DNA of 64,000 nucleotides, from contig CAZYSM010000003.1 of assembly GCA_964649975.1 (NCBI GenBank), forward strand, positions 16,292-80,291. The letters run 5' to 3'. Positions 13,112-63,021 of this stretch are shown in pieces. The stretch is from an uncultured Bacteroidales bacterium. GTDB lineage: Bacteria; Bacteroidota; Bacteroidia; Bacteroidales; S143-33. Within the stretch, counting starts at the first letter, position 1, and each line of letters begins with the position of its first letter. Below the pieces are notes generated by a model that was given only the letters and a program-made list of their open reading frames with translations, ran no database searches and was not told where the DNA came from. A program made the translations under genes and the position numbers.

Positions 13112-15157
13112 ATGAACAAAAATTTCAAACAACTGCTGCTTGTATTTTTTTTGTTTTTAGGTCTGACATATTCCCATGCCAGCAACATAGATTCATTAAT
13201 AAGGCAGTTAAATAAAGTCCAGGGAAAACAAAAAACCGAACTTTTGCTTAATATCACCTGGAAACTGCGTAATACCAATCCTCAGGAAGGCATCAAGTAT
13301 TGCAAACAAGCTATTAGACTGGCTGATAGTACGAAAGACTATGCCAATGCTGCCAAAGCTTATAGTTTCCTTGGGGTATTATACAGAAATCTGGGCTATT
13401 ATAGCATTGCTTTTTCGTATTACAAAAAAGGATTGGAAATTGCTATCAAACACAATATATTAGACCAGGAAGGTTACGGATATAACAATCTGGGTAATAT
13501 CTACCTTTATCAAAAACAACCCAAATTAGCCATCAATTATCTCAAAAAAGCTGATAGCTTAGCCCAAATTATGAAAAACGATGATGTCAGGGCCTATGCT
13601 TTGCAAAATATCGGAAGGGCTTTTATGATGTTAGGTCAAGCTGATAGCGCTATAAAATATTTAAACCTTACTCTGGAGGTCAGAGAAAAAATTAATGCTG
13701 TCAACAAAATTCCAGTTACTTATAAATACCTTGGGGATGCTTATAAATTGAAAGGAGATTATAAATCAGCTTTTAAATATTATGCACTTACGGCCAGCAG
13801 TGCGGATTTTGAAAATGATATGGACCTTTATTCAGACTATTCCTATAATATGGCGGATTTATATCTAAAAACCAATCGTCTGGATTCTGCGCTGTGGTAT
13901 GCCCAGCAGTCAATAAAAGCTGCCAAAAAAGTAAACACCCTTTACAGGGAAATGCTGGCTTACGAAATCCTGGCAAAAGTCTATGCACAAAAGCAAGACT
14001 ACAAAAAGGCTTATGATTATAGTCTGCAAGCCCTTAAAATAAAAGACCAAATTTTTACCGAAGAGGTGGTCAAAGGTGTTAAGAGTATTGAGTTTACCGA
14101 ACAAGCAGCAAAAAAAGATGCAAAAATCAAACTACTGGAAAAAGACTTAAAAATAAAATTACTGGAGAATAAAAGACGAACTTACCTCCTCTACTCTGCT
14201 ATATTTGCCCTGCTTATATTAGTAATTCTGGCAGTGTCTATTTATATACAAAACATTAAGGTCAAACGTTATGCTGAGCAACTAAGCGAAAAAAATTATA
14301 TTATCAACCAGCAAAATGAAGAACTCCAGCAACACTCTAATATTTTAAAATCCATTAATGAAGAATTAGCAGAAAAAGACAGAACGATTACTCAGAGCAT
14401 TGAATATGCCAAGACTATAAAACAGTCTATGATGGCCTCAGAGGCAGCATTACAGGAATGCCCTGTAGTAAGGGATTATTTCATCATTGATAAGCCCAAA
14501 GACATTATTGGCGGCGATTTCTACTATTTCAACCGATTCAAGGATTATATTTCCATCATTGTTGCTGATGCCACAGGCCACGGTATCCCTGGCGCTTTTA
14601 TAAGCATTATTTCTATTGCTATTTTCAAAGATATTTTACATTCCTTAGAAAATCCAGATGCCGCCCAGGTGCTCACAATATTCCGGGCAAGGATAAAATC
14701 AGTATTGCGCCAGGATCAGAAACGTTTCAATGTAAAAGATGGTGTGGACGTAGCAATATGTCTTATTTATCCTCAACGCAACATACTGAATTTTGCTGGA
14801 GCATATCAGGATTTATACTATATCAATCACGGAGAACTCACTGTTGTGAAAGGAGTAAAGAATACAGCTGGCTTCTCTTTTGTAGAAAAAGAATTTGTTA
14901 GCCACAATATTTACCTTGAAAGCATTGATAAATTTTATTTATTTTCTGATGGTGTTGTTGACCAGCTGGGGGGTGAGGATTATACGCGCTTTAGCACTCA
15001 AAGATGGCAAAACCTGCTATTGGAAATATACCACTACCCAATGAAAAAACAAAAAGAAATTATTGAACAGATTATTGAGAAATGGCAAGACAATAACAGA
15101 CAGACCGATGACATCCTCATAGTGGGCATTGAACTGGATAAAAGCGTGTTAATGTAA
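13112..15157 (+). CDS. Sensor phosphatase: signal peptide, TPR repeats, TM helix, coiled coil, PP2C/SpoIIE phosphatase domain
   Basis: TPR-like repeats (AYSFLGVLYRNLGYYSIAFSYYKKGLEIA etc.), TM helix LLYSAIFALLILVILAVSIYI, and SpoIIE motifs GGDFYYF, VADATGHGIPGAF, LFSDGVVDQ, TDDILIVG. Confidence 0.85.
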   Translation: MNKNFKQLLLVFFLFLGLTYSHASNIDSLIRQLNKVQGKQKTELLLNITWKLRNTNPQEGIKYCKQAIRLADSTKDYANAAKAYSFLGVLYRNLGYYSIAFSYYKKGLEIAIKHNILDQEGYGYNNLGNIYLYQKQPKLAINYLKKADSLAQIMKNDDVRAYALQNIGRAFMMLGQADSAIKYLNLTLEVREKINAVNKIPVTYKYLGDAYKLKGDYKSAFKYYALTASSADFENDMDLYSDYSYNMADLYLKTNRLDSALWYAQQSIKAAKKVNTLYREMLAYEILAKVYAQKQDYKKAYDYSLQALKIKDQIFTEEVVKGVKSIEFTEQAAKKDAKIKLLEKDLKIKLLENKRRTYLLYSAIFALLILVILAVSIYIQNIKVKRYAEQLSEKNYIINQQNEELQQHSNILKSINEELAEKDRTITQSIEYAKTIKQSMMASEAALQECPVVRDYFIIDKPKDIIGGDFYYFNRFKDYISIIVADATGHGIPGAFISIISIAIFKDILHSLENPDAAQVLTIFRARIKSVLRQDQKRFNVKDGVDVAICLIYPQRNILNFAGAYQDLYYINHGELTVVKGVKNTAGFSFVEKEFVSHNIYLESIDKFYLFSDGVVDQLGGEDYTRFSTQRWQNLLLEIYHYPMKKQKEIIEQIIEKWQDNNRQTDDILIVGIELDKSVLM

Positions 15158-21849: not shown

Positions 21850-22248
21850 ATGAAAGGAAAAGATTTATTCGTATATTTATCCACTACAAAAACTCCAGAA
21901 ATCAGACTTTCACAGGATATTAATGACGATTCATTGTATATTTTGAGTATTAAAGGACGAAGCATTCCTGAAAACCCTCTGGAATTTTTCACACCAATTA
22001 TTGACAAATTACTCTCACGCATCCCTGACGATAGCGGTGTAAATAAGATAATTATAGACTTAAAATTAGACTATATCAATTCCATCTCAATAAAATTTTT
22101 TATTAAAATACTCAAACGTATAAGCGAACATTTTAAGGCTGAAAACATTGTTATTAATTGGTATTACGAAGACGAAGACATTTACGACCTGGGTAAGGAT
22201 CTGGAATTTATGACTGGATTGAATTTTAATTTTGTAGAAGTGGATTAA
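21850..22248 (+). CDS. Stand-alone DUF1987 / SiaC-like regulatory phosphoprotein
   Basis: TPEIRL..L.I.G.SIPENPLEFFTPIIDKL..IIIDLKLDYINSISIKFF..VINWYYEDEDIYDLGKDLEFMTGLNFNFVEV matches the DUF1987 pattern. Confidence 0.75.
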   Translation: MKGKDLFVYLSTTKTPEIRLSQDINDDSLYILSIKGRSIPENPLEFFTPIIDKLLSRIPDDSGVNKIIIDLKLDYINSISIKFFIKILKRISEHFKAENIVINWYYEDEDIYDLGKDLEFMTGLNFNFVEVD

Positions 22249-32288: not shown

Positions 32289-35200
32289 ATGAACAAAATA
32301 CGAATTATTTTTTTTCTACTGCTGTTTACAAAAATAAGTTTTGCCCAGTTTCTGACCAAAATCCCGTTTGACCATTACAATATATCCTCGGGGCTGAGCA
32401 GCAATAATATCACCACGATAATCCAGGACGGCAGTGGGCTTTTATATATTGGCACAGACAAAGGACTTGAAACCTACGATGGATATAAATTTGAGAGAAT
32501 AGACATCTCCCAGAACGAAAATCTTTATATAACCTCCCTGCTAATTACACAAACACCTCGTAAATCCCTATGGATAGGCACATTAGACAGTGGCCTGATA
32601 AAAAGGGATTTGATAAATAATGAGAATTATTTTTTTCTATTCCGGCTATTTAAAGAACTACGTTCAGACAGGATAAATGATCTGGCATTGGTTGATAACG
32701 AAATTTTTATTGGCACCGACAGCGGCCTGACACGACTTAATCCTATAAGTGGGGTATTACATTATATTCCTATAAATCAAAACAATATTAACATAACATC
32801 ACTAAAAACACTGGGCAATACCCTGATAATTGGAACGGACCAGGGATTATTCTTTTTAAACGTAAAATCATTATCCACCGAAAGGTTAACACCTCCAGAA
32901 CTCAAAGGAATGTATATTACATCCCTGGAGATAGACAAAAATCATAACATCTGGATAGGGACATCCTCAGGAGTGTTTATTTATAACATTCCAGAGAAAA
33001 CACTTAAACATATTAATTATCCTGTTTCTCTTAGCAATTCATACATTACTACAATAAAATACACTTCCTACAACGAAGTATGGATAGGCACACGCAATAA
33101 CGGACTATTTATCATTAACCAGAAAAAGCATAATATAGAACATATCGTAAGCAATCCTTTTCTTTTCCATAGCATCAAAAGTAATAATATAACCACAATT
33201 TTTGAAGCTCAAAACAAAGATATATGGATAGGCACATACGGAGGCGGCCTATACAGATACGCGCCTTCTCACCGGCATTTACAATATATTTCGTTTTACC
33301 TCCAACCCAGGGAAGGAAAAAATATTCAAACCATAGCCCGGGATAAAAAAGGTAACATCTGGATAGCCACACGTAATGCCGGGATAAAAAAATGGAATCC
33401 ACACACCAACACCACTACAACATTCTCACATAACCCCAAATCCAAAAAATCCATAGCTCAAAATAACATCACTGCAATATATGCCGACAGCAAAGGAAGA
33501 ATATGGCTGGGCACAGAAAGTAAAGGCGTTGATATGCTAGATCCTGTAAAAGGCAAAGTTATCAAACATTTTTCCCAGCTAAAAGATGTTTACATCTCAG
33601 ATATTACCGAAGACAAAGACGGAAATATCTGGATTGCTACTTTTGGAAAAGGGCTGATTAAGTTGCATAATAACAAAATCAAGACCTATACCAAATCCAA
33701 TTCCCATTTACCAAGCAATTTTGTTACCCGGGTGTTTTGTGACAGGAAAAACCGCATCTGGATAGGTACAATAAAAGGACTGGCTATACTAATGCCTGCT
33801 TCCAATAAAATTACACCAATTTTAACCTCGGATAAAAACTTAAATCTATTATGGATATACGCCATATATCAAAGTGATGACGGTAATATCTGGCTTTCCA
33901 CAAAATCCGGAAAATTATACAAAATAGATAAAAATCTACAATATAAAGAGATTAATGACACAACCCTTACCCAGAACAATGTTATATATGACATTAATGG
34001 ATATGATGGGATAATATGGCTGGCCAGTAAAAAAGGGCTCATTAAATATAATCCACATACCGGAAAAAAATATATACTTTATAACGGAATAATAAACTGC
34101 CACGGTGGATATAACCGCCTCGTAAAATCAGAAAAAGGTTTTTACGCTATATCCGACAACGGTCTTGTCAAAATAGATACTAATATTAGCAACCTGACAC
34201 AGTATACTCCACGCATTGATATAGCATCACTGGAGATCAATAATAAAAAACAAGTTATTAGTTCCAGAAAAAAAATAGAGATTAAAGGCCTGAAAAACAG
34301 CCTAAAATTAATCTTACATCCCATTGATTTTCATAATCGTTTCCATCTGTTTAAATACAAACTCCTTGGGCTGGATACAACATTCCATATAAATGATAAA
34401 CCAATAATTGCCTATAAAAATATTCCTCCTGGTAAATACCGGCTTGTTGTAAAACCAATTAGTGCGACTGGAGATGCCGACTCTGTTATTATTCCGCTGG
34501 ATATAGTAGTAAAACGACAATTTACTGACACCAGGGCTTTTGCGTTACTCCGCTCAAGCCTGTATATAATTCTATTTCTGAGCGTTATCATTCTGATGTT
34601 AGGGTATTTTATAAGACGACAACGCAAACTGTTAAACATTATCACAGCTCAAAATAATGAGTTAAAAAAGAAAAATAAGGAACTGGAAGAAAAAATCAGA
34701 ACCATAAAAGAACAATCTGATTATATAATAAAATTAAATGAAAAATTAAGTATTAGCAACGAGGAACTCAAAACAACAAACCAGATACTTAAAGAGCAAG
34801 AGGAGCTACTGAGCGCACAGACTCAAGAAATAGAATCCAGCCTGCAATACGCCCAGCACATACAACGTTTATTAATGCAGTCGCATGAAGACCTGCGACA
34901 GATATTCAGCCAGCACTTTTTGATATATATACCCCAGGGATATGTTTCTGGAGATTTCTACTGGGCTGCCCAGATAGACAATAATAAAATAGCAATAGTG
35001 GGAGATGCCACTGGACATGGTGTCCCCGGAGCCCTGATGGCAATTTTAGGATTAAGTATAATCAAAAAAGTTGTAAATGAATATAAAATCACTGATCCTC
35101 AAGATATTCTCAACAAAGTAAAAGTTGACCTGAAAAGTTTTCAGAACAAATATAACTACGATAGTGAAGGTTTTAAGCTTGATAGAGAAGGTTTTGCCCT

Positions 35201-35630
35201 GGCAATTGCCAAAATAGACCAGCAAAATAATTTAATAAAATATGCCACTGCGGGAGGTATTATTTATTTCATAGACGTAAAAAACAACCAACTGCATGAA
35301 TTCAAAACAGCACGCCGTGATATAACTTTTGGCTTCAGTGCTCCCGAATATACCCAGGCCATTTATAAATACAACAATGGCGATATGTTATACCTATTCA
35401 CTGATGGATATGCCGACCAGATAGGCGGCCCTGACGGGAAAAAATTTAAATACCGCAAATTAAAAGAACTATTGAAAAAAATTTGTGTTCTTCCTGTAGA
35501 TGAACAGAAAAGGATACTTGAACAAAATTTTTATCAATGGATGCATCATCCTTCCAAAGACGGGCTATTACCTCATTATTTCCAGATTGATGATGTCACG
35601 TTTATGGGGATAAAGCTGGAAGCTGATTAA
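32289..35630 (+). CDS. Sensor phosphatase: two-component-regulator propeller repeats, Y_Y_Y domain, TM helix, coiled coil, PP2C/SpoIIE domain
   Basis: Start set to MNKIRIIFFLLLFTKISFAQ (the track starts at an upstream TTG, 32184). Many ..I..I..D..G.IW[IL]GT.. propeller repeats. Y_Y_Y-like FKYKLLGLDTTF. TM helix LYIILFLSVIILMLGYFI. SpoIIE motifs SGDFYWA, VGDATGHGVPGAL, LFTDGYADQ, IDDVTFMG. Confidence 0.85.
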   Translation: MNKIRIIFFLLLFTKISFAQFLTKIPFDHYNISSGLSSNNITTIIQDGSGLLYIGTDKGLETYDGYKFERIDISQNENLYITSLLITQTPRKSLWIGTLDSGLIKRDLINNENYFFLFRLFKELRSDRINDLALVDNEIFIGTDSGLTRLNPISGVLHYIPINQNNINITSLKTLGNTLIIGTDQGLFFLNVKSLSTERLTPPELKGMYITSLEIDKNHNIWIGTSSGVFIYNIPEKTLKHINYPVSLSNSYITTIKYTSYNEVWIGTRNNGLFIINQKKHNIEHIVSNPFLFHSIKSNNITTIFEAQNKDIWIGTYGGGLYRYAPSHRHLQYISFYLQPREGKNIQTIARDKKGNIWIATRNAGIKKWNPHTNTTTTFSHNPKSKKSIAQNNITAIYADSKGRIWLGTESKGVDMLDPVKGKVIKHFSQLKDVYISDITEDKDGNIWIATFGKGLIKLHNNKIKTYTKSNSHLPSNFVTRVFCDRKNRIWIGTIKGLAILMPASNKITPILTSDKNLNLLWIYAIYQSDDGNIWLSTKSGKLYKIDKNLQYKEINDTTLTQNNVIYDINGYDGIIWLASKKGLIKYNPHTGKKYILYNGIINCHGGYNRLVKSEKGFYAISDNGLVKIDTNISNLTQYTPRIDIASLEINNKKQVISSRKKIEIKGLKNSLKLILHPIDFHNRFHLFKYKLLGLDTTFHINDKPIIAYKNIPPGKYRLVVKPISATGDADSVIIPLDIVVKRQFTDTRAFALLRSSLYIILFLSVIILMLGYFIRRQRKLLNIITAQNNELKKKNKELEEKIRTIKEQSDYIIKLNEKLSISNEELKTTNQILKEQEELLSAQTQEIESSLQYAQHIQRLLMQSHEDLRQIFSQHFLIYIPQGYVSGDFYWAAQIDNNKIAIVGDATGHGVPGALMAILGLSIIKKVVNEYKITDPQDILNKVKVDLKSFQNKYNYDSEGFKLDREGFALAIAKIDQQNNLIKYATAGGIIYFIDVKNNQLHEFKTARRDITFGFSAPEYTQAIYKYNNGDMLYLFTDGYADQIGGPDGKKFKYRKLKELLKKICVLPVDEQKRILEQNFYQWMHHPSKDGLLPHYFQIDDVTFMGIKLEAD

Positions 35631-39652: not shown

Positions 39653-42637
39653 ATGCGGAGACAAATAAAAATACTGCTGATTGCCATTCTTGTTCCTTTG
39701 TTCATGGGGCTTAGCCAGGTAAATTATTATGTTCCGGATATAGCTGTGCCTGCACGGATAAATCCGCCTTTTATGCAAGGACAGGCTTCGTGGGCACAGA
39801 GCGTTTTTGACACACTGACACTGGAAGAAAAAATTGGGCAATTATTTATTTATCAGGTATATCCGAACAATCCTGACAATATCAAGCAGGTAAAAGAATA
39901 CATAAAAAAATATCACCTGGGCGGAGTGATATTTTTCCGTTCGCGGGCAGAAAAAATTCCGCCACTTGTCAGGGACTTCCAGAACTTGTCTCCGCATATA
40001 CCTATGTTTTTTGCCATAGATGCCGAATGGGGCGTCAATATGCGTATCCCCGGCACAGTGAAATTTCCTTACCAGATGACGCTGGGAGCAGTGCAGAACA
40101 ACACGCTTATTTACGAAATGGGTCACGAGATAGCCCATCAGCTGCACCTGCTTGGATTGAATATGAATTTTGCTCCGGTGTCAGATATAAATGTCAATCC
40201 GCGCAATCCTGTTATTGGAGTGCGTTCCTTTGGTGAGGACAAAGTCAATGTCACACGCAAAGCCTTTGCCTATATGCAAGGGCTGCAGGATTCGGGCATA
40301 ATAGCTTTTGCAAAACATTTTCCGGGCCACGGAGACACGGATAAAGATTCGCACAAAACCCTTCCGCAGATCAGCCACTCGTATCAAAGAATATATAATG
40401 TTGAACTCTATCCATTCCGCAGTTTGATAAAAGGCGGCCTAACAGGCATAATGGTTGCCCACCTCTATGTGCCCGCCCTGGAAGACGCACCCAACACTCC
40501 CACTACCCTATCCCGTAATGTAATAAAAGGCTTGTTGCGGGACAGCCTGGGCTTCCGTGGATTGATTGTGACCGATGCTATGACAATGAAAGGCGTAACA
40601 AAATATTTTGCTCCGGGCGAGGCAGAAATACGGGCTTTACTGGCTGGTAATGACATCATTCTTATGCCTTCTAACCTGCCTGTTGCTTATAATGCCATCC
40701 GCAATGCTGTGCTGCGGGGAGAAATTCCTATGTCAGTAATAGACAGTGCTGTGATGCGTATCCTGCGCGCCAAGCAATGGATAAGAAACTACTCCGTCCG
40801 ATCGGCTGATGCAAAAAATATCCTGCAGAAAATAAATTCTCCGCAGGCAGAATACATTAGCCAGAAACTGTATGAACAGGCTATTACTCTGGTGAAAAAT
40901 ACTGATAATCTTATTCCTGTGCAGGATTTGGACAAAAAACGTATTGCCGTTATCTCGGTTGGTGCGCCCAGGGATAATACTTTCCAGAAATATCTTAACT
41001 ATTATGCCAGAGTTGATGAATATTACGTATCCAATAATGCAGATTACCAGCAATTTATGGATATGGCCAAGCGCCTTTCTGGATACGATATGGTTATCGT
41101 CTCGGTGCACGGAAAAAACAGTTTCTCGCCTCCTTTCTACGGAGTTAATGAGAACGCTGTATGGCTAACAGCCTACCTGGCCAACAAAACAAACGTCATA
41201 CTGGATTTATTTGCTCCGCCATATCTGCTAAATATGTTCAACAACATTGACAAAATCAAGGCCATTGTCATTTCTTATGAAAACACGAAGTATGCTCAGC
41301 AGGCTTCGGCACAGGTAATTTTCGGCGGAATTGGTGCGCAGGGCATACTCCCGGTAAGTGCTGGTGGTTTCGCGGCTGGCACAGGCATTTTTACCAAAAG
41401 GATAAGGCTAAAATATTCCTCTCCCGTGGAACTGGGTATAAATCCGGACAAACTACGCATAATTGACACTATCATACAGACTGCTATTGACAGCGGTGCT
41501 TTCCCCGGATGTCAGATCCTGGCCATAAAAGACACTGTGGTATTTTTTAACAAAGCTTACGGATATTTTACCTATCAAAAAAAACATCCTGTCACCACAA
41601 ACACACTCTACGATATAGCCTCGCTAACCAAGACCACAGCTACCACCCTGGCTTTAATGCGTTTATACGACCAGGGCAAGCTGGATTTGAATCAAACACT
41701 GTCTCATTACCTGCCCGGGACTGACACAACAAACAAAGGCAATATCAGAATTATTGACATCCTCACGCATCAGGCACGCCTAAAATCATGGATACCTTTT
41801 TATCTGCATACTTACACAAAGGATCACACAAGGCTCAACCCAAAGATTTATTCCGACCACTACACTTCAAAGTATAACACGCAAGTAGCTGACCATTTAT
41901 ACATAATAGGCAGCTATCGTGATTCCATCCTCAAACAAATTTATGCTTCCAGGCTACTCAGACGCAAACGCTATTTATACAGCGACCTGGGCTTTATACT
42001 TATGAAACAGCTAATTGAACGCCAGACAGATACCAGCCTTGATCAATATGTAAAAATCAATTTCTACGACCCGCTGGGAGCATGGCATACAGTCTTTAAC
42101 CCATTAAAATATTTCCCAAAAAATCAGATTGCGCCTACTGAAAACGATACTTATTTCCGGCACCAGATCATCCAGGGATATGTGCACGACTATGCTGCTG
42201 CCCTTATGGGCGGGGTAAGCGGACATGCAGGACTGTTCTCCAACGCCAATGACCTGGCAAAAATTTATCAGATGCTTTTGCAAAATGGATATTATGCAGG
42301 AAAAAGATATATCAAATCTACCACAGTTAAGCTATTCACTACCAGACCTTTTCCGCGCACTAACCGCCGTTATCTGGGCTTTGACGGAAAAGATGGAGAA
42401 AAAACTTATTACGTTGCACCCTCGGCACCGGATGATAGCTATGGACATACCGGATTTACCGGATGTATGGTATGGGTGGACAGACAGAATAACTTTATTT
42501 TCATTTTTCTGTCCAACAGGGTGTATCCGGACATAAAAAATTATAAAATGAATCATATGCGTATCCGTGCAAGAGTGCATCAAGCTTTTTATGAGGCTTT
42601 CCCACAGCAAAATAAAAAAGAATACATTGCCCAGTAA
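39653..42637 (+). CDS. Fusion protein: GH3 beta-N-acetylhexosaminidase (NagZ-like) N-terminus plus serine hydrolase / beta-lactamase-fold C-terminus
   Basis: GH3 motifs KHFPGHGDTDKDSH and LIVTDAMTMKG. The C-terminal half carries SxxK (ASLTKT), YSDLGF and HTGFTG motifs of the class C beta-lactamase/PBP fold. Confidence 0.88.
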   Translation: MRRQIKILLIAILVPLFMGLSQVNYYVPDIAVPARINPPFMQGQASWAQSVFDTLTLEEKIGQLFIYQVYPNNPDNIKQVKEYIKKYHLGGVIFFRSRAEKIPPLVRDFQNLSPHIPMFFAIDAEWGVNMRIPGTVKFPYQMTLGAVQNNTLIYEMGHEIAHQLHLLGLNMNFAPVSDINVNPRNPVIGVRSFGEDKVNVTRKAFAYMQGLQDSGIIAFAKHFPGHGDTDKDSHKTLPQISHSYQRIYNVELYPFRSLIKGGLTGIMVAHLYVPALEDAPNTPTTLSRNVIKGLLRDSLGFRGLIVTDAMTMKGVTKYFAPGEAEIRALLAGNDIILMPSNLPVAYNAIRNAVLRGEIPMSVIDSAVMRILRAKQWIRNYSVRSADAKNILQKINSPQAEYISQKLYEQAITLVKNTDNLIPVQDLDKKRIAVISVGAPRDNTFQKYLNYYARVDEYYVSNNADYQQFMDMAKRLSGYDMVIVSVHGKNSFSPPFYGVNENAVWLTAYLANKTNVILDLFAPPYLLNMFNNIDKIKAIVISYENTKYAQQASAQVIFGGIGAQGILPVSAGGFAAGTGIFTKRIRLKYSSPVELGINPDKLRIIDTIIQTAIDSGAFPGCQILAIKDTVVFFNKAYGYFTYQKKHPVTTNTLYDIASLTKTTATTLALMRLYDQGKLDLNQTLSHYLPGTDTTNKGNIRIIDILTHQARLKSWIPFYLHTYTKDHTRLNPKIYSDHYTSKYNTQVADHLYIIGSYRDSILKQIYASRLLRRKRYLYSDLGFILMKQLIERQTDTSLDQYVKINFYDPLGAWHTVFNPLKYFPKNQIAPTENDTYFRHQIIQGYVHDYAAALMGGVSGHAGLFSNANDLAKIYQMLLQNGYYAGKRYIKSTTVKLFTTRPFPRTNRRYLGFDGKDGEKTYYVAPSAPDDSYGHTGFTGCMVWVDRQNNFIFIFLSNRVYPDIKNYKMNHMRIRARVHQAFYEAFPQQNKKEYIAQ

Positions 42638-44007
42638 TGAAAAAAATCTTTTACATATTACTGATAATCACCGCATTAACAGGTTGCCAAAAAATTTCCT
42701 TTTATAATGGTCAGGTAAAACTGAATTTCTCCACAGATACTGTATTTTTTGATACAGTGTTCACCAATATAGGTTCTGCTACCCGCATTCTAAAAGTATA
42801 TAATCCTGTTAATCAATTTGTAAAAATAAACTCCATAAGCCTTGCAGGCGGAAAAAACAGTGCATTCCGCCTGAATATCAACGGGGAACCAACCAGCTAT
42901 GCCAGGGATGTTATTATTCCGCCTCGCGACAGCATTTACATCTTTGCCGAGGTCACCATTGCTCCTAACAAAGGCTATCTGGTGGAACAGGATTCTATCA
43001 TCTTTGCAATTAACGGAAAAACCCAGATCATTCCGCTTTATGCCATAGGCTGGGACGTGCATCTGATAAAAAACAAAATCATTTCCTCGGATACGGTATG
43101 GAATGCGGACAAACCTTATCTCATCTGGTATTACGTGGCCATTGATACTGGCGCCCAGCTGCAAATAAACCCCGGAGTGCAGGTCTTTTTACACAGGAAT
43201 GCCGGCCTATTCGTCTTTGGTTCACTCAAAGCTTACGGAAGCCTTGACAGTAATATTACTTTTTCCTCCGACCGCCTGGAACAAGATTACAACGACATTC
43301 CCGGACAATGGGGTGGTATAGTGCTGGAACGCACAAGCCAGGGCAACGAATTCCACTGGACAAGGATAAAAAACTCCATTGTAGGCATATCAGCGGACTC
43401 GGTGCAGGACACTGTCATCATACACAACTGCGAGATTATCCATCAGAGCTATGCCAGCATATTTGCTTCAATGAGCAATATAAACATCTTTGGCAGTGTG
43501 CTGGCCGATGCCGGATGGTATAACCTGGGCATTATCAAAGGCGGAGACTACAAAATTATCAATACCACAATTGCCAATTACTACGGCTGGGGCACTATCC
43601 GGAAAACTCCTGCCGTGGCAGTGACTAACTACGAGATTATCGGGAATACCCCTGTTTTCCGAAGCCCTGTGAACCTTGAAATCATCAATTCCATCATCTA
43701 CGGAAACCACGAAAATGAGCTTTTGCTATCCCCTGCTGTGGAATGGGAAAATTTCAATTACCTGATTAATAACTGCCTGATAAGAACAACAGAAGATTAT
43801 ACTTTCCATCAGTGTATAATAAACCAGGACCCGCAATTTTCCGACATTACAAAATATGACTTCCACCTGGGCAGCAAATCACCAGCCATTGGCAAAGCCG
43901 ATTACGGTATAATCAGCCTGTTTTCAAGGTTTCTCAACATTGATATTGACGGAAATTCCAGAAATAACCCTGCGGATATTGGCGCTTATGAATATGTGGA
44001 AAATTAA
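42637..44007 (+). CDS. Hypothetical lipoprotein, probable right-handed beta-helix
   Basis: Lipobox LTGC at residues 14-17. Repeated I.N[CS].I turns. C-terminal ..NPADIGAYEY is typical of beta-helix repeat proteins. Its start overlaps the upstream stop by 1 nt. Confidence 0.6.
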   Translation: MKKIFYILLIITALTGCQKISFYNGQVKLNFSTDTVFFDTVFTNIGSATRILKVYNPVNQFVKINSISLAGGKNSAFRLNINGEPTSYARDVIIPPRDSIYIFAEVTIAPNKGYLVEQDSIIFAINGKTQIIPLYAIGWDVHLIKNKIISSDTVWNADKPYLIWYYVAIDTGAQLQINPGVQVFLHRNAGLFVFGSLKAYGSLDSNITFSSDRLEQDYNDIPGQWGGIVLERTSQGNEFHWTRIKNSIVGISADSVQDTVIIHNCEIIHQSYASIFASMSNINIFGSVLADAGWYNLGIIKGGDYKIINTTIANYYGWGTIRKTPAVAVTNYEIIGNTPVFRSPVNLEIINSIIYGNHENELLLSPAVEWENFNYLINNCLIRTTEDYTFHQCIINQDPQFSDITKYDFHLGSKSPAIGKADYGIISLFSRFLNIDIDGNSRNNPADIGAYEYVEN

Positions 44008-45815: not shown

Positions 45816-45906
45816 ATCTATAAACTTTTAAATTATCCGGTAAAGATAAAGAAATTTGCGGTTAAATGAATAATTTTTTATGTAAAAGTGCATTTATTTT
45901 ACATTA

Positions 45907-46283
45907 GGGCGTGCCCCTCACCAGAATTTTCACTCAGCCTTATAATAATTTCTCCGCTTTATAAACCATAAAAACTCTTTCCGCCTGTTTGATGCTACCT
46001 GGCTCGGGTCGGTCTGCGGCTGCGGTCTCGCTCGGTTCGTGCCGCAGTGGCGGCAGTGCGTAGGGCTCAGTCCCATCGCCTCCGCCTGCTCGCCACTGCC
46101 CAAAACGGCAATTTATACATAATTTCCACAATATACTCTGGGTGTCCCCGCCTTTATCCCATCCACGCAAGGCTCCACCAGGCACAAAACAGCTACTACT
46201 AACCTCGCACAAAATCCTAATCAGTGCCAACAATACACGGTCAGGCACGAACCATCGCTCACCCTCCGCCTCCGCCCTCACGC
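45907..46283. other. GC-rich structured intergenic island (unclassified)
   Basis: A 505-bp gap between the ligA stop and the hemerythrin start. Stems: ctgcggc/gccgcag (46014-46020 / 46041-46047), gcagtggcg/cgccactgc (46044-46052 / 46091-46099), and the 10-bp inverted repeat ggttcgtgcc/ggcacgaacc (46034-46043 / 46244-46253). Both ends carry ccctcac. Confidence 0.35.
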
Positions 46284-46320
46284 AGAAAGGAAAAAATACC
46301 AGCCACCAGACAATAGTATC

Positions 46321-48366
<2,046 letters not shown>

Positions 48367-48446: not shown

Positions 48447-49988
48447 ATGGATAAACCGAAATTAGGAAATAAAAACGATTATAGCAATAATCAAGAAACT
48501 CCTTGTATGAGTCTTTCTATTTTCCGTACCCTCCAGGATAACAATATTGAATACGTCTATATTGGTCAGTTTACCAATAAAATCACAGATTCCATACTCT
48601 CCCTGGCCGAACTAAATCTACAATTAATCAACGAAAGTCTCAAAGTACGCAAACGTGTCTATTTCATACTTGTAGAAGGCCTGCAAAATATCACACGACA
48701 TCAGAGCATCACCCCAAAACATGTGGATAAAAGTGGAGTACTGATAATACAAAGAATTAAAGACCAATACATCATAACCACAGCCAATTATGTAAAAAAG
48801 AGTGAAATAGAAAACCTCAAACAGCACATTGACTCCATTAATAGCCTTGGCGACAAAGAATTAAAAGACTATTACCGGGAAATTTTACAAAAACAAAAGA
48901 TCTCTCACAAAGGAGGAGCAGGACTTGGACTAATAGAAATAGCCAGAAAATCCAATAATAAATTATTATACGAATTCCAACCTGCTGATAAAGAACATTA
49001 TGTATTTTTCCTGCAAACACAAATCTCTCCGGCCAAAAGCACTGAAAATCAAACCAATAAAGAAAACCTTGAAAACATAAAAGAAGTATATAACAAACTG
49101 GTAAAATGCAATATTTTATTTTCAATTTCCGGAATATTTAACCAGGACAAAATAATTTACATGCTCTCGCTCCTGGAAAAAAGATTGCAATCCCAGACCT
49201 CCTCTAAAAACAAAATTTTTAATATAATAGTAGAGCTCTTACAAAATATTGTAAACCATGCCGATGATTATATAGAACATAAAGCTCAGGGACATCACGG
49301 AGTATTTTACATTGCCGAACAGGACAATAATCTCATTATCACCACGGGAAATTATATTAAAAATGAAAAGATAAACAAAGTAAAAGGTCTCCTCAACAAA
49401 ATTAACTCTCTATCTATAAAGGAATTAAATGAGAAACACCGTAATATACTCAAAAAATTTAAAAGTAATCAGAAATATGATCAGGCTGGGCTGGGGCTTA
49501 TAAATTTACGGCTGAAATCCAGAGACAAAATAAATTTCTATTTTGAAAAAGTAGATGATAAATTTAGCTTCTTTTCCATAGAGGTAAAATTAAAAAAAGA
49601 CAGCAACATAAGACTTAACCCCCTGCATATCAAAGCAACTGACAACACCCCAGCTGTTATTTTAGCGCCCACTAAATCGGAATTTATATTCCGTGGCACC
49701 TGCATTCCCTGTGATGCCAGGTCGTTTTTTGCGCCGATACAAAAATGGATGGACCAATATTCAAATGCACCTCTAAACTATACCCCTATAACATTTGACC
49801 TAAACATCATAAACACTCCATGCCAAAAAGAATTAACACAACTCTTTGAAAAGATTAGCAAACTGAACGACAGTTCAATAGTAACTATAAAATGGAAATA
49901 TAAAAAAGGAGATACGGACATAAAAGAATTTGGCGAGAATTTAGCCAAAATATTTCCTCATATAAAAATAGAACTTATCCCCAAATAA
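48447..49988 (+). CDS. Fusion protein: two tandem SiaB-like GHKL kinase modules plus a C-terminal DUF1987/SiaC-like domain
   Basis: Internal duplication: VYFILVEGLQNITRH / IFNIIVELLQNIVNH; YIITTANYVKKSEIENLKQHIDSINSL / LIITTGNYIKNEKINKVKGLLNKINSL; GGAGLGLIEIARKS / DQAGLGLINLRLKS. The C-terminal 124 aa (nt 49614-49985) read TPAVIL..FIFRGTCIP.DARSFFAPIQKWM..ITFDLNIINTPCQ..VTIKWKYKKGDTD, the DUF1987 pattern. The true start may be the ATG at 48507. Confidence 0.75.
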   Translation: MDKPKLGNKNDYSNNQETPCMSLSIFRTLQDNNIEYVYIGQFTNKITDSILSLAELNLQLINESLKVRKRVYFILVEGLQNITRHQSITPKHVDKSGVLIIQRIKDQYIITTANYVKKSEIENLKQHIDSINSLGDKELKDYYREILQKQKISHKGGAGLGLIEIARKSNNKLLYEFQPADKEHYVFFLQTQISPAKSTENQTNKENLENIKEVYNKLVKCNILFSISGIFNQDKIIYMLSLLEKRLQSQTSSKNKIFNIIVELLQNIVNHADDYIEHKAQGHHGVFYIAEQDNNLIITTGNYIKNEKINKVKGLLNKINSLSIKELNEKHRNILKKFKSNQKYDQAGLGLINLRLKSRDKINFYFEKVDDKFSFFSIEVKLKKDSNIRLNPLHIKATDNTPAVILAPTKSEFIFRGTCIPCDARSFFAPIQKWMDQYSNAPLNYTPITFDLNIINTPCQKELTQLFEKISKLNDSSIVTIKWKYKKGDTDIKEFGENLAKIFPHIKIELIPK

Positions 49989-50024: not shown

Positions 50025-50723
50025 ATGAAAGCAATGATACTCGCTGCAGGTCTGGGTACCCGTCTGCGGCCATGGACTAATAACAGACCCAAAGCACTTG
50101 TGGAATATCATGGAAAAACTCTGCTTGAATACGCAATAGAAAAACTTAAATCTTACGGTTTCAACCAGATAATAATCAATGTACACCATTTCGCAAATCA
50201 AATTATTGATTTCGTAAAACAGCATAACTACTTTGATATTGAGATTGTATTTTCGGATGAAACAAAGGATCTATTGGATACTGGTGGGGGCATACAAAAA
50301 GCCAGCTGGTATTTAAAGGATAGCCCAAAATTCCTCGTCTATAACGTTGATATTCTCTCGGATATAGACCTGAAAAAATTATATGAAGATCATCCCCAGC
50401 AGGCACTTGCAACACTGGCAGTACAGAAAAGGCCTACCAGCCGGACTCTCCTGTTTACTCAAGCAGGAAAAAAACTCTGTGGGTGGAAAAATCATAATAC
50501 TGGTGCACAAAGACTTATAGAAAGTTTATGCACTAATTATCAAGAGTTTGCTTTTAGCGGAATTCACATTTTATCCGGGGAAATATTCAAATTCTTACCC
50601 TCGGGGAAATATTCAATCATCACAGCTTACCTTGATATAGCAGAACAAGGAGGCTTTATAACTTATCACGACCATACGGGAGATAACTGGAAAGATATGG
50701 GACTGAAGGAAAATTACTTGTAG
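50025..50723 (+). CDS. Sugar-phosphate nucleotidyltransferase (MurU / NTP-transferase family)
   Basis: MKAMILAAGLGTRLRPWTNNRPKALV is the N-terminal nucleotide-binding signature; ..DTGGG... Confidence 0.8.
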   Translation: MKAMILAAGLGTRLRPWTNNRPKALVEYHGKTLLEYAIEKLKSYGFNQIIINVHHFANQIIDFVKQHNYFDIEIVFSDETKDLLDTGGGIQKASWYLKDSPKFLVYNVDILSDIDLKKLYEDHPQQALATLAVQKRPTSRTLLFTQAGKKLCGWKNHNTGAQRLIESLCTNYQEFAFSGIHILSGEIFKFLPSGKYSIITAYLDIAEQGGFITYHDHTGDNWKDMGLKENYL

Positions 50724-50724
50724 C

Positions 50725-51093
50725 TTACTCCACTGAAATAAAATTAAAATCAATGCCAATCAAATCGCTTATATCCATACCTAAATCACGAAATTCCTCG
50801 TCCGAATAATACCAATTAATTACGACCTTATAACCCATTTTCTGCAAGTCTGACATCAAACTGATTATCTCAAATAAATGTACCTGCGAGCTCGTATTGA
50901 AAAAATCAAGATTAATGTCCAGAACAGTTTCTTGGGCAGGTACAAGGATATATTCCTTCAACCAGGCTATAGGCTTTTTGTAAAACTCATGAGCATTTTC
51001 AAGAATGGACACCCCTGTAATTGACAAACGTCCATCGGCCAAAAACTTAATCTCCGGACTCTTATTCGTCTGCCTGATAATTAGGTCTTCCAT
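50725..51093 (-). CDS. Stand-alone DUF1987 / SiaC-like regulatory phosphoprotein
   Basis: SPEIKF..GRLSITGVSILENAHEFYKKPIAWL..VLDINLDFFNTSSQVHLF..VVINWYYSDEEFRDLGMDISDLIGIDFNFISVE. A paralogue of 21850-22248. Confidence 0.75.
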   Translation of the reverse strand: MEDLIIRQTNKSPEIKFLADGRLSITGVSILENAHEFYKKPIAWLKEYILVPAQETVLDINLDFFNTSSQVHLFEIISLMSDLQKMGYKVVINWYYSDEEFRDLGMDISDLIGIDFNFISVE

Positions 51094-51172: not shown

Positions 51173-51514
51173 TCATTCTCCTATTAACATCTGCCATACA
51201 GCGCCCCAGCCAGGAAAGCCTCCCAGATTACGGTCATCTATATATATATCAGCCAGGATTTTACGACTACCTTCGGACGGATTAAACACCTCTCCCGGAT
51301 AATTAGCATTGACAGCATAAAATTCCACTCCGTTTTTTCTGCAAAATTCCACTGCTTCATCCAGTAACTCTCCAGTGCGATATGTCCACAATATCAATAG
51401 ATGTCCTCGCTTCTGCAGTTCTCGCAGGGTCTGAAAAGCAAAACGCTTGGGTTTTCCAATCTTTGGATACCGGTCTTCAACAATTGTTCCGTCAAAATCC
51501 ACTGCAATAATCAT
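51173..51514 (-). CDS. Small HAD-like phosphatase (single-domain, BT0820-like)
   Basis: MIIAVDFDGTIVE (DxDGT motif I), ..ILWTYR.., ..DIYIDDRNLGG. Confidence 0.7.
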   Translation of the reverse strand: MIIAVDFDGTIVEDRYPKIGKPKRFAFQTLRELQKRGHLLILWTYRTGELLDEAVEFCRKNGVEFYAVNANYPGEVFNPSEGSRKILADIYIDDRNLGGFPGWGAVWQMLIGE

Positions 51515-60236: not shown

Positions 60237-62600
60237 ATGGCCAGAAGAAAATTTAAAAATAACCTCTATCAAAGGATATTCCTTATTATCAGCTCAGTAT
60301 TATTGATAATAGTCATAACGTCTTTTTTTCTCATTATAAAACCATATTTGATAAGACAAAAATCCATACGTTTATACAATCAATTACTTCCTGAAGATCA
60401 ATATGTTCAGCAAGAGCTTAATAAAAGTATCCTGCTTTCCGAAATCTTAGCTTCAAATCTAAAAACTTTTTACACTCCTAATACGGCTTTATATCTATCT
60501 GACGAATACCTACAATCAGTTGCCAATGATATTCTTAAAGAACACTATTATATTCATGCCATAGGATTTATTATTCAAGCAGATCTGCAATTATCTATTA
60601 CAAACGAGGATTACATTAATGAAAACGGGTATTTCACTGGTATATGGGAGAAAAACTTTAATAATCAAATAGAACATAAAATTTTAAATCTGAAAAAAAC
60701 AGGAAACGAAAATATATTATTAGAAGTCAAAAATTCCAAAACTCCTATCCTTGGCAAACCGTTCCTTTATACATCCCAGGGTATCAATACTATAATGCAG
60801 CCAATAGCTGCGCCTATCTTTGTCGGCAATAAATTTATCGGAACAGTAATTATCTTCTTATCAATGGATTTTATGGATGAAGCATACAAATTCAATATAT
60901 ACACAAAAAAAGACAATAAATTATTGCTATTCAATAAAGACGGTACTATACTTTTCTATCCCTTGAAATTAAATATCGGTTCGCAGCTGGAAACGCTATT
61001 TCCTGGACATTCTATAGAAATTCTGAAAACTATTGCACGAAAAGAAAATCTAACTGGAAAATTTGGAGATTACTTCATAACAGGCTTATATATCAACACG
61101 ATACAAAAGGATCAATATTGGATAATTTCCATCTTTACGCCTTACAATAAATTTATCAGTAGCATATATCTTGTACTGGCCGTATTGATTATAGGTACCT
61201 TACTTATTAGCATTGCTGTTGTAATTAGTCTTTCACTTATATCTGCACCTTTTGAAAACATTTTCACCTCAATGCAAAAGAGTGCTACAAATCTATATAA
61301 AGGCGAATTAGATGAACAGGTAGAAATAATTTCCTCCTTTGAAGAAACTTACCAAATAACACATACACTGGAGCGCTTACGCCTCAGGTTGCTAAGTACC
61401 GTAGAACTACATAACAAATTGGCCGAAAGAATATATACCGACCGCCTGCCTGTTCTTGGTCCTCGTGACCGCCTGGCAAAATCAATAAATAATGCTTTTG
61501 AAAAAATTATCCAGCGCTGGAAGGACAGGATGACCCTGGAAGAAAATAAACGCAAATCAGACTGGATTAACCAGGGTATTGCTGCAATGTACGAAGCTGT
61601 TAGAGTACAGAAAAACTCATACAACATACTGGGAGATCAAGTCCTTGATAGCTTTATAAAACATGCTAACCCAGTAATCGCTGGTTTCTTTATCTATGAC
61701 CAGGATGACAATAAACTGAAAACTGTTGCAGCTTTTGCTTATGAAGAAAAAAGATCTTTTAACAGGGAAATTGAACCTGGTCAGGGATATATAGGCAATG
61801 CTGTACTGGAGAAAAAAATGACTTACATAAAAAAACTCCCGGACGATTATCATATGTATCTTTTAGGACTGGGTGAGACAAAGCCAAAATCCGCTCTTAT
61901 CCTTCCAATAGTATTAAATGAAGAAATACTTGGAGCAATAGAATTGCTATTCCTCAGAGAATTAGAAGATTACGAATTTGAATACTTTGACAAATCAACT
62001 ATTGCCATTGCCCAGGCTATAAAATCAATACAAATAAACCTGAGAACAGAAAAACTCCTTGAACAGAGCCGTCAGCAAGCACAGGAACTGGAAAAAACAA
62101 AAGAATTGCTACAACAGCAGATAGAATCATTAAAACAACGCGAGCAAGAGCTTAAAAAAGCCGAGCAAGAAACAAAAGGCATACTCCAGGCCGTCAATCA
62201 TACTCTATTAACCGTAGAATATAAAACAGACGGAACATTTATCTCTGCTAATGAATTATTCCTGCAAAAAATGGAATATTCCCTGGATGAGCTGGAAGGA
62301 ATTAATGTACTGGAAATTGTACCCGAAGACCAACAGAAAGATCTTAAGCAGATTATAAAGCGGGTTGCCAAAGGAGAACACATTTCAAAAATTGTTAAAC
62401 GACAAACTAAATACGGGGAAATAATATGGTTATATGCTACTTATACTCCATTCTACGACCTTTCGGGCACAATAACAAAAATATTGTTCTTTGCCTTTGA
62501 TATTTCGGACACATACAAACGAATCCAAGAATTGGAAGAAAAAGTCAAATTACTTAACGAAGAAATTGCCGCTCTGGAAAAAGCACTAAACGAACTATAA
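60237..62600 (+). CDS. Membrane sensor protein: TM, Cache-like periplasmic domain, TM, HAMP, GAF, coiled coil, PAS; no enzymatic output domain
   Basis: TM1 IFLIISSVLLIIVITSFFLII, a loop of about 280 aa, TM2 IYLVLAVLIIGTLLISIAVVISLSLI, a HAMP-like segment, a GAF-like segment (..GQGYIGNAVLEKK..ALILPIVLNEEILGAIELL), and a PAS-like segment (AVNHTLLTVEYKTDGTFISANELF..). It ends in a coiled coil. I found no H-box, GGDEF or other catalytic motifs. Confidence 0.75.
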   Translation: MARRKFKNNLYQRIFLIISSVLLIIVITSFFLIIKPYLIRQKSIRLYNQLLPEDQYVQQELNKSILLSEILASNLKTFYTPNTALYLSDEYLQSVANDILKEHYYIHAIGFIIQADLQLSITNEDYINENGYFTGIWEKNFNNQIEHKILNLKKTGNENILLEVKNSKTPILGKPFLYTSQGINTIMQPIAAPIFVGNKFIGTVIIFLSMDFMDEAYKFNIYTKKDNKLLLFNKDGTILFYPLKLNIGSQLETLFPGHSIEILKTIARKENLTGKFGDYFITGLYINTIQKDQYWIISIFTPYNKFISSIYLVLAVLIIGTLLISIAVVISLSLISAPFENIFTSMQKSATNLYKGELDEQVEIISSFEETYQITHTLERLRLRLLSTVELHNKLAERIYTDRLPVLGPRDRLAKSINNAFEKIIQRWKDRMTLEENKRKSDWINQGIAAMYEAVRVQKNSYNILGDQVLDSFIKHANPVIAGFFIYDQDDNKLKTVAAFAYEEKRSFNREIEPGQGYIGNAVLEKKMTYIKKLPDDYHMYLLGLGETKPKSALILPIVLNEEILGAIELLFLRELEDYEFEYFDKSTIAIAQAIKSIQINLRTEKLLEQSRQQAQELEKTKELLQQQIESLKQREQELKKAEQETKGILQAVNHTLLTVEYKTDGTFISANELFLQKMEYSLDELEGINVLEIVPEDQQKDLKQIIKRVAKGEHISKIVKRQTKYGEIIWLYATYTPFYDLSGTITKILFFAFDISDTYKRIQELEEKVKLLNEEIAALEKALNEL

Positions 62601-63019
62601 TGATTGTCTATTGCAGAAACTGTGGACAACCTATAAATATCAACAATACAGGATTGCTAAACAATCCGCGGTTTATATGCCCCAACTGTGGCATGCCTAT
62701 TATGCAGGGCGGTAACTACTGCTACAAATGCGGAAAACCTACTTTCCCTACCGACAGGGTATGCATCAATTGCGGATCCGTTCTAAAACAGACTTTCTCC
62801 GACTGGTTAACTACCCTACTACTGGCAGTATTTTTGGGAACACTCGGAGTGCACCGCTTTTACACCAGAAATTATATAACAGGGCTGCTGCAACTCATCA
62901 CGCTTGGTGGCCTGGGTGTGTGGACACTCATTGACATTATCCGTATACTCACAGGAGATTTCAAAGATGGATACGGTAATCCTATTCCTGCACCATATAA
63001 CAAAACCCAAAAAATATAA
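62600..63019 (+). CDS. Double zinc-ribbon plus TM2-domain membrane protein
   Basis: CRNCG..CPNCG and CYKCG..CINCG ribbons, followed by the TM2 signature LLLAVFLGTLGVHRFY..GLLQLITLGGLGVWTLIDIIRIL. 1-nt overlap with the sensor stop. Confidence 0.8.
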   Translation: MIVYCRNCGQPININNTGLLNNPRFICPNCGMPIMQGGNYCYKCGKPTFPTDRVCINCGSVLKQTFSDWLTTLLLAVFLGTLGVHRFYTRNYITGLLQLITLGGLGVWTLIDIIRILTGDFKDGYGNPIPAPYNKTQKI

Positions 63020-63021
63020 AT

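Follow-up and report, generated by a model that had tools for sequence, protein, structure and literature searches.

A tandem SiaB-type kinase fused to a SiaC-type domain in Bacteroidales: candidate core of a SiaABC-type phospho-switch

How might a phospho-switch operate when its kinase is doubled and carries a presumed substrate on the same chain? The question is raised by one gene of an uncultured Bacteroidales bacterium, located within a 64,000-nucleotide stretch of contig CAZYSM010000003.1 (positions 16,292 to 80,291, hereafter the window), which an earlier note made from the letters of the sequence had read as two SiaB-like GHKL modules followed by a SiaC-like DUF1987 domain. In Pseudomonas the dimeric kinase SiaB phosphorylates SiaC at T68, the PP2C phosphatase SiaA reverses this, and only unphosphorylated SiaC binds its target, phosphorylation blocking the interaction (PMC7278518, PMC7647112, PMC8457831); the full set of parts comprises the kinase SiaB (PA0171, which works as a dimer), SiaC, the PP2C SiaA and the diguanylate cyclase SiaD (PMC7278518). 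Profile hidden Markov models (HMMs), a PDB sequence search and a fold search all agree with the SiaB–SiaB–SiaC reading of the polypeptide. We lean, with some reserve, towards the view that this fusion represents a Bacteroidota-specific rebuilding of the kinase/substrate core of a partner-switching phospho-switch of SiaABC type.

The domain assignments are as follows (coordinates in Table 1). Pfam places DUF6272 (PF19788) on two stretches of the fusion protein (whole-protein E 2.6e-67, 225 bits against a cutoff of 26.6) and SiaC (PF09345, formerly DUF1987) on residues 395–512 (E 9.4e-25, 87 bits against 24.5); the NCBIfam model SiaB_fam_kinase (NF038262) likewise matches two stretches (241.7 bits against 85), such that the protein passes the profile cutoffs of both the SiaB family protein kinases and the SiaC family. 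The narrower equivalog cutoffs are missed, both for SiaB proper (NF038264, biofilm regulation kinase; 102.5 bits against 225) and for SiaC proper (NF038265; 36.3 bits against 150). Residues 21–196 and 205–385 form the internal duplication that the earlier note had delimited (34% identity over 172 residues, E 1e-20), and each half on its own retrieves the SiaB chain 6kko_A from the PDB. A linker of ~9 residues joins module 2 to the SiaC domain, whose first residue, 390, corresponds to nt 49614, the start that the note had given for its DUF1987 segment. Approximately the first 20 residues of the protein are unconserved, and M21 (nt 48507) could, judging from the sequence, be an alternative start. 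A scan of the fusion protein for transmembrane segments found none.

An AlphaFold2 model built on 118 homologues has a mean predicted local distance difference test score (pLDDT) of 86, falling below 50 at residues 1–15, and a predicted template-modelling score (pTM) of 0.77, which suggests that the mutual packing of the three domains is defined. Searched against the PDB with Foldseek, the model matches SiaB (6KKO_A/B) with template-modelling (TM) scores of 0.83–0.84 on the target, and SiaC (6KKO_C/D, 6KKP, 6K4F, 7E6G) with TM 0.83–0.90 and a root-mean-square deviation (rmsd) of 1.5–2.4 Å, the SiaC domain superposing most closely on 6KKO_C, 6KKP and 6K4F (TM 0.88–0.90, rmsd 1.5–1.7 Å). The next-best folds after SiaB are SpoIIAB (1TIL, 1TH8, 1L0O), UsfX (8IH8, 8JZT), RsbW (6M37) and CheA P4 (E 3e-3 to 8e-2, probability 0.9–1.0, TM 0.58–0.70 on the target). 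These matches justify the GHKL label of the earlier note; by its Bergerat-type fold and the likeness of its N-box and G-box, the protein falls within the anti-sigma factor Ser kinase branch of the GHKL superfamily.

Comparison of the two kinase modules reveals that they are not equivalent. The patterns E.LQNI..H and GLGL, quoted in the note, are located in both: the N-boxes are EGLQNITRH (77–85, module 1) and ELLQNIVNH (263–271, module 2), and the G-boxes GGAGLGL (156–162) and AGLGL (347–351). E77 and E263 align with the Glu of the SiaB motif IEMTQNI, which we equate with the Glu61 that Poh et al. predicted to be catalytic. The SiaB sequence SGAGLGL aligns with GGAGLGL of module 1, and module 2 has AGLGL only. 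Module 1 thus carries E77, Q80, N81 and H85 (the E..QN..HQ box), N114 and the lid K155-GGAGLGL-162 (nt 48909–48932); 58 of its 176 columns are at least 90% conserved, and its motifs are invariant across 118 fused and 64 split (non-fused tandem) homologues. Module 2, with 26 of 181 columns at this level of conservation, retains E263, Q266, N267, H271, N302 and G348-L-G350 without the K-G-G-A part of the lid, columns 344–347 ahead of the GLG being variable or gapped in every one of the same homologues. The 64 non-fused tandem proteins display the same asymmetry of module 1 and module 2, which is therefore older than the fusion.

The third domain retains the site at which SiaC is phosphorylated. 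In alignments to 6kko_C and 6k4f, Thr68 of SiaC (LNTSS, phosphorylated) coincides with T457 (INTPC) of the fusion protein, and of the 118 full-length fused homologues 109 have T at position 457 and 5 have S, the remaining four carrying E (2), H (1) or K (1). The flanking positions are similarly constrained (at 456, N in 104 homologues and S in 14; at 459, S or T in 114), giving a conserved N-T-x-[ST] motif around T457. Free-standing SiaC copies have T or S at the phospho-site in 62 of 63 cases.

A fused gene could in principle be an artefact, whether a sequencing or assembly error or a recent and functionally meaningless read-through of adjacent genes, and the split genes of relatives do lie close enough (0–25 bp) for one base change to fuse them; one contig of 0.4x coverage (L001) has a broken version, probably a broken fused gene. 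We regard this explanation as negligible and rejected it on two grounds, namely that the fused form makes up more than 115 clusters at 90% identity (full-length, ~500–520 aa, both Pfam domains, identity down to 37%) and that the fused forms are one deep clade; the conserved linker length and the modelling of the whole protein at the mean pLDDT given above also speak against it. A protein database search returned 813 matches, and the best 120 of these are almost all of 500–530 aa with both Pfam domains (37–99% identity), those that bear a name being entered as “DUF1987 domain-containing protein”, “SiaB family protein kinase” or “hypothetical protein”. A GTDB scan, one genome per species, gave at least 578 matching stretches, their sources being Bacteroidales, Marinilabiliales, Salinivirgaceae, Draconibacterium-type, Flavobacteriales, Sphingobacteriaceae and “Chlorobi/Chlorobiota” metagenome-assembled genomes (MAGs).

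Eighty related loci were taken for open reading frame (ORF) and HMM scanning. In 63 of them a split operon is found, consisting of a ~375-aa tandem SiaB–SiaB gene and, 0–25 bp further on, a ~124-aa SiaC gene; in five Salinivirgaceae loci the tandem kinase is followed by a pair of SiaC genes, a few loci have a tandem gene without adjacent SiaC, and 14, plus the window, are fused. A profile search of 1.84 billion representatives (50% identity) recovered 9205 proteins at E≤1e-3, of which 906 reach E≤1e-30; among the best 150, ~9 are of ~500–513 aa and ~140 are tandem-only proteins of 360–390 aa. A neighbour-joining tree of the tandem region groups 13 of the 14 fused sequences and the window in one clade, with L029 a probable independent fusion, such that fusion appears from the sequences to have arisen essentially once. 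The fusion is, then, an old and conserved variant that makes up a minority within a large tandem-SiaB family, and the two-gene operon (tandem SiaB–SiaB, then SiaC) is its ancestral form and direct evolutionary parent, from which the fusion therefore came about by stop-codon loss. As regards the domain-architecture census suggested in the note, the fusion belongs to a common tandem family whose split form is the commoner. The literature searched yielded no paper on this family, nor any on DUF6272, SiaB-like, SiaC-like or DUF1987 proteins outside Pseudomonas. The proteins themselves are not rare and have been named automatically in databases.

Several paralogues can occur per genome, with up to four tandem copies (L003, L015, L051 and L071 come from one MAG). 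In L003 (3970–7945) and L006 (564–4685) a canonical single-module operon, encoding a SiaB of 191 aa, a SiaC of 128 aa and a sensor SpoIIE phosphatase of 938 aa, lies ~5 kb from the fused gene; single, tandem and fused forms therefore coexist.

We compared the fusion with known systems. The split tandem-SiaB and SiaC operons of Bacteroidota and Chlorobiota share its module order, its lid asymmetry and the placement of SiaC right after the kinase; they differ in that the stop codon is gone here, leaving one 513-aa chain, and in that split operons usually have a convergent sensor PP2C right downstream, where fused genes are followed by a variable second gene on the same strand. With SiaABCD of P. 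aeruginosa the fusion has in common the kinase fold and motifs (catalytic Glu kept), the DUF1987 fold and the SiaC phospho-loop N-T-S-S; PP2C domains that are candidates for the SiaA type are encoded in the same window. Unlike in SiaABCD, the kinase is tandem-duplicated with diverged halves, the substrate is fused to it, and the phosphatases of the window bear TPR or beta-propeller/Y_Y_Y sensors and stand outside the fusion operon. A further difference concerns the output: among the window ORFs scanned for domains (~48 of the 69 in a list of those of at least 110 aa, the remainder being mostly shadow ORFs overlapping larger genes) no SiaD was found and no GGDEF, EAL, STAS or sigma-factor domain, in line with what the note had said of GGDEF and EAL, and neither GGDEF nor EAL appears among the recurrent neighbour clusters of the 80 loci. 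Because no SiaD/GGDEF output was found among these ORFs and the equivalog cutoffs are missed, we place the fusion outside the SiaABCD c-di-GMP (cyclic di-GMP) system. Bacteroidota are not known to make much use of c-di-GMP signalling, which they largely lack.

Precedent for a partner-switch kinase fused to its substrate is provided by M. tuberculosis Rv1364c (PAS-PP2C-kinase-STAS in one polypeptide), in which Ser600 is phosphorylated by the kinase domain of the same protein (PMC9138534). Kinase–substrate fusion is accordingly no new principle; Rv1364c, unlike the fusion described here, has one RsbW-type kinase domain, phosphatase and sensor domains of its own and an action on SigF, and it has neither SiaB/SiaC homology nor kinase duplication.

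The Bacillus systems RsbU/RsbV/RsbW and SpoIIE/SpoIIAA/SpoIIAB resemble the fusion in pairing a GHKL-type Ser/Thr kinase dimer with a small alpha/beta phospho-substrate and an opposing PP2C, SiaC being structurally STAS-like (PMC7647112); they differ in that the fusion has no evident sigma partner, a DUF1987 substrate rather than a canonical STAS domain, and a kinase that is tandem and fused. This likeness opens the possibility of an anti-sigma-type switch, in which the kinase modules, especially module 2, would hold a sigma factor or other regulator that is released when unphosphorylated SiaC binds back, the output thus running via the kinase. The SpoIIAB dimer binds one sigma factor asymmetrically, which the hard-wired asymmetry of the two halves recalls, and the match to SpoIIAB, RsbW and UsfX reaches probability 1.0 at the TM scores above; in 8 loci, moreover, an RpoD-like sigma-70 gene lies 2–4 genes from the split operon. 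We nevertheless consider such a switch improbable: the window ORFs scanned hold no sigma factor, the neighbouring sigma gene of those loci looks like a housekeeping RpoD of 286 aa whose linkage may be plain synteny, and in Pseudomonas the output runs via SiaC and not via SiaB (PMC7278518).

We turn to the phosphatases that could oppose the kinase. Neighbour clustering across the 80 loci identified sensor-SpoIIE phosphatases as the only specific recurrent neighbour family, directly beside 26 loci, where one to three copies usually stand immediately behind the split operon in convergent orientation. A conserved output gene common to all tandem loci was looked for in the same clustering and dropped, as sensor PP2C phosphatases were all that it gave; HtrA, DapF, RpoD and PPK1 recur beside subsets of the loci, which may be plain synteny. 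Two genes of this phosphatase family lie in the window, both in the same homology cluster (c2) as the phosphatases of the 26 loci, and Pfam bears out the note's identification of them as PP2C genes (TPR plus SpoIIE at 13112–15157; Reg_prop/Y_Y_Y plus SpoIIE at 32289–35630, the protein starting at M36 of a TTG ORF). Their best NCBIfam match is in each case SiaA (NF038263; 157 bits for the PP2C part of the first and 118.6 bits for the second, both below the equivalog cutoff of 700), and we consider both products, on sequence grounds, candidate SiaA-type phosphatases.

The genes flanking the fusion are conserved in its own subclade. In all eight relatives examined (46–90% identity; L081 and L083–L088), a divergent ligA on the minus strand precedes the fusion on the plus strand, and a nucleotidyltransferase gene on the plus strand follows directly, overlapping the fusion gene by 4–8 bp in five loci. 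The same pair, separated by 1 bp, is found in L002, where identity of the fusion protein is down to 41%; this brings the pairing to 10 loci with fusion proteins 41–90% identical to that of the window. In the window no terminator-like site was found between the two genes on the plus strand, and the nucleotidyltransferase gene is a probable operon partner of the fusion and a candidate for its output; its product scores 132.5 bits with the NCBIfam MurU model, under the cutoff of 250. A scan for sigma-70 promoters was uninformative (13 sites against 14.3 expected); a Bacteroidota-type TAATTTTG was picked out by eye ~73 bp upstream of the fusion ATG and was not weighed against chance.

Two free-standing SiaC genes, on the minus strand at 50725–51093 and on the plus strand at 21850–22248, had escaped the earlier note, bringing the window to three SiaC domains, one fused and two free; a six-frame HMM scan of the 64 kb found no SiaB-type sequence besides the fusion gene. 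The first free SiaC lies 0.7 kb from the fusion gene, and its position is conserved in L081, L083, L084 and L086 and displaced by recG in L088. Upstream of it lies a small HAD phosphatase gene, the two making up a small operon, and the HAD–SiaC pair is kept in five relatives (L081, L083, L084, L086 and L088), the gene ahead of the free SiaC being of 112–116 aa there. The second free SiaC follows just after an RsmE-type RNA methyltransferase gene (21098–21790), far from any kinase gene.

The second subclade of fused genes has a different neighbour. A ~663-aa protein with a repeat-rich N-terminal half and a C-terminal Ion_trans_2 pore is encoded directly downstream (18–300 bp) in 10 of 14 loci, often with ppk1 adjacent, and is a candidate for an alternative output; the fusion proteins of these loci are 43–60% identical to each other. 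The ~663-aa protein is seen in L003, L005 (e.g., L005:11793–13784), L008–L012, L016 and L026, and its N-terminal half is pentapeptide-repeat-like by eye, with no Pfam call. One fused locus has a DUF1538 gene in the downstream slot. As the downstream genes differ between fused subclades, we conclude that fused genes head two-gene operons whose second gene is lineage-variable.

The mechanism that we lean towards is built on homology and anatomy, that is, on the domain identities, the conservation of motifs and of the threonine, the fold, the distribution and the gene linkage set out above, and from these we infer the pseudo-dimer, the cis phosphorylation, the active module, the phosphatase pairing and the output of the fusion protein. 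In place of the Pseudomonas SiaB homodimer, the two SiaB modules would form a covalent asymmetric pseudo-dimer, with module 1, whose ATP lid is intact, as the main catalytic half and module 2 as a diverged half that keeps a Mg/ATP N-box and may serve mainly as a docking or scaffold surface. This pseudo-dimer would phosphorylate Thr457 of its own tethered SiaC domain in cis, the free SiaC paralogues being probable additional substrates. On receiving a stimulus at their extracytoplasmic domains (TPR or beta-propeller), membrane sensor PP2C phosphatases of SiaA type would strip off the phosphate, and the unphosphorylated SiaC domain would then bind and modulate a target other than a diguanylate cyclase, for which the tightly linked MurU-like nucleotidyltransferase is the best candidate in this subclade. 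Tethering would raise the local kinase concentration and so favour phosphorylation by default, a tight default-off state, and could insulate the switch from paralogous kinase/SiaC pairs in the same genomes. The 6KKO entry contains two SiaB and two SiaC chains, and the two-SiaC operons of Salinivirgaceae, together with the fused and the nearby free SiaC of the window, would fit two SiaC-binding sites per pseudo-dimer as in this 2:2 complex.

Several observations weigh against this mechanism. Of the 11 closest homologues examined, four lack the acceptor at position 457 (E, E, H and K in its place) and keep all kinase motifs; some lineages can therefore do without phosphorylation of the fused domain. 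The two SiaC genes of the five Salinivirgaceae loci fit two binding sites and not specifically one active site. The window phosphatases are 13 and 33 kb away, their pairing with the fusion being drawn from family membership only. The downstream gene varies among fused subclades (the ion-channel protein in 10 of 14 loci, DUF1538 in one), giving no universal output, and adjacency alone is no proof of regulation. The note's view of the fusion as self-contained is likewise made doubtful by the homologues that have lost the acceptor and by the two free SiaC genes of the window, the nearer of which is conserved in relatives.

Another explanation is that the SiaC domain of the fusion gates its kinase as a tethered pseudo-substrate or regulatory plug, and that the free SiaC proteins (50725–51093 and 21850–22248) are the real substrates and carry the output. 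Both N-boxes and the module 1 lid are invariant in the homologues with E, E, H or K at 457, a free SiaC gene with T or S at its site stands beside the fusion operon in 6 of 9 subclade loci (window included), and the window holds its three SiaC domains against one SiaB-type gene. We judge a pseudo-substrate to be unlikely, in that T or S occupies position 457 in 97% of the 118 fused homologues as well as in the window protein, and the fused domain has its origin in the SiaC encoded by the split operon, where SiaC is the obvious substrate. Nor does loss of the acceptor correlate with the neighbourhood: a tie between T457 loss and a missing neighbour SiaC was suggested by L085 (fusion protein P0010, E at the site, no adjacent free SiaC) and is contradicted by L086 (P0006, also E, with one adjacent), and was rejected.

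Returning to the switch with a cis-acting pseudo-dimer, three elements of it appear to be undescribed: a SiaB pseudo-dimer made of tandem, sub-functionalised modules, the joining of this pseudo-dimer to SiaC, and a phylum-wide expansion accompanied by sensor PP2C phosphatases and not by c-di-GMP enzymes. The SiaB/SiaC switch has been known only from Pseudomonas, gating a diguanylate cyclase; Bacteroidota and their relatives have it in another form, which is far more abundant. The family offers candidate substrates for the very numerous orphan sensor phosphatases of Bacteroidota and a natural case of a homodimeric kinase turned into an asymmetric covalent pseudo-dimer; the fusion protein itself would be a convenient single-chain system for comparing cis and trans phosphorylation. 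On a broader and more tentative reading, which is possible rather than probable, the SiaABC switch has been rewired into a phylum-wide, multi-paralogue Bacteroidota network, in which many extracytoplasmic sensor PP2C would feed hard-wired asymmetric tandem-SiaB pseudo-dimers and SiaC switches, the fused form being self-insulated and directly regulating the enzyme or channel encoded next door. If true, such a network would link envelope sensing to cell-wall or polysaccharide precursor supply via the MurU-like enzyme, and would provide a function for the orphan Reg_prop/Y_Y_Y- and TPR-SpoIIE phosphatases of Bacteroidota.

Table 1. Coordinates in the window of the fusion gene, its parts and the genes discussed with it.
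Feature	Position	Strand	Basis and remarks
SiaB–SiaB–SiaC fusion gene	48447..49988	+	513 aa, intact ORF, cytoplasmic
Kinase module 1, residues 21–196	48507..49034	+	More conserved, SiaB-like half; 6kko_A E 2.4e-9
Kinase module 2, residues 205–385	49059..49601	+	Diverged duplicate; 6kko_A E 4e-6
SiaC/DUF1987 domain, residues 390–513	49614..49985	+	PF09345; SiaC fold
T457 codon, predicted phospho-acceptor	49815..49817	+	Motif N456-T457-P-C; aligns with N67-T68-S-S of P. aeruginosa SiaC
ligA	46321..48330	-	Divergent from fusion gene
MurU-like sugar-1-phosphate nucleotidyltransferase	50025..50723	+	PF00483; 36 bp downstream of fusion, same strand
Free-standing SiaC paralogue	50725..51093	-	122 aa, NTSS phospho-site motif; PF09345 E 2.7e-27; convergent with fusion operon
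BT0820-family small HAD phosphatase	51173..51514	-	113 aa; NCBIfam NF046079, 182.5 bits against cutoff 165; upstream of free SiaC, same strand
Second free-standing SiaC paralogue	21850..22248	+	132 aa, Ser at phospho-site (NSIS); PF09345 E 1e-22
Sensor phosphatase, TPR type	13112..15157	+	Signal peptide, TPR region, one transmembrane helix, cytoplasmic SpoIIE/PP2C; Pfam, transmembrane scan
Sensor phosphatase, beta-propeller type	32289..35630	+	Signal peptide, Reg_prop beta-propellers and Y_Y_Y, one transmembrane helix, SpoIIE/PP2C; Pfam, transmembrane scan

Other features of the window were noted in passing. A plus-strand gene at 39653–42637 encodes a 994-aa protein joining a GH3 (NagZ-like) glycosidase to a beta-lactamase/transpeptidase-like domain, conserved upstream in the relatives L081 and L088; together with the MurU-like gene, this GH3 fusion hints at peptidoglycan recycling in the region. 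A 456-aa lipoprotein is encoded at 42637–44007 (plus strand). Its homologues adjoin tandem-SiaB genes in L004, L048, L059 and L061, either through plain synteny or because of a functional link, and the one in L088 gives a weak Beta_helix_4 match. GAF and PAS domains are confined to the C-terminal 330 residues of a 787-aa protein (60237–63579, plus strand), the N-terminal 460 aa of which are unassigned; the genes after it encode a zinc-ribbon/TM2 protein and a 185-aa HD-domain protein, and weak homologues of the GAF–PAS protein are encoded near tandem-SiaB genes in L004, L047 and L051. Between the rpsS16/rimM genes and rsmE lies a 1575-aa ORF (16358–21085, plus strand) with no Pfam match at E≤0.001.

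Finally, a GC-rich island (45900–46300; 56–60% GC against 32–40% nearby) occupies part of the 505-bp gap between a hemerythrin gene and ligA. It gave no Rfam, tRNA or tmRNA match and has no second copy in the window; the 89%-identical relative L081 lacks it, sharing only the first 90 nt of the gap. With RNA fold z-scores of -3.0 on the plus strand and -1.7 on the minus strand, the island may be an inserted element or an unknown structured RNA.

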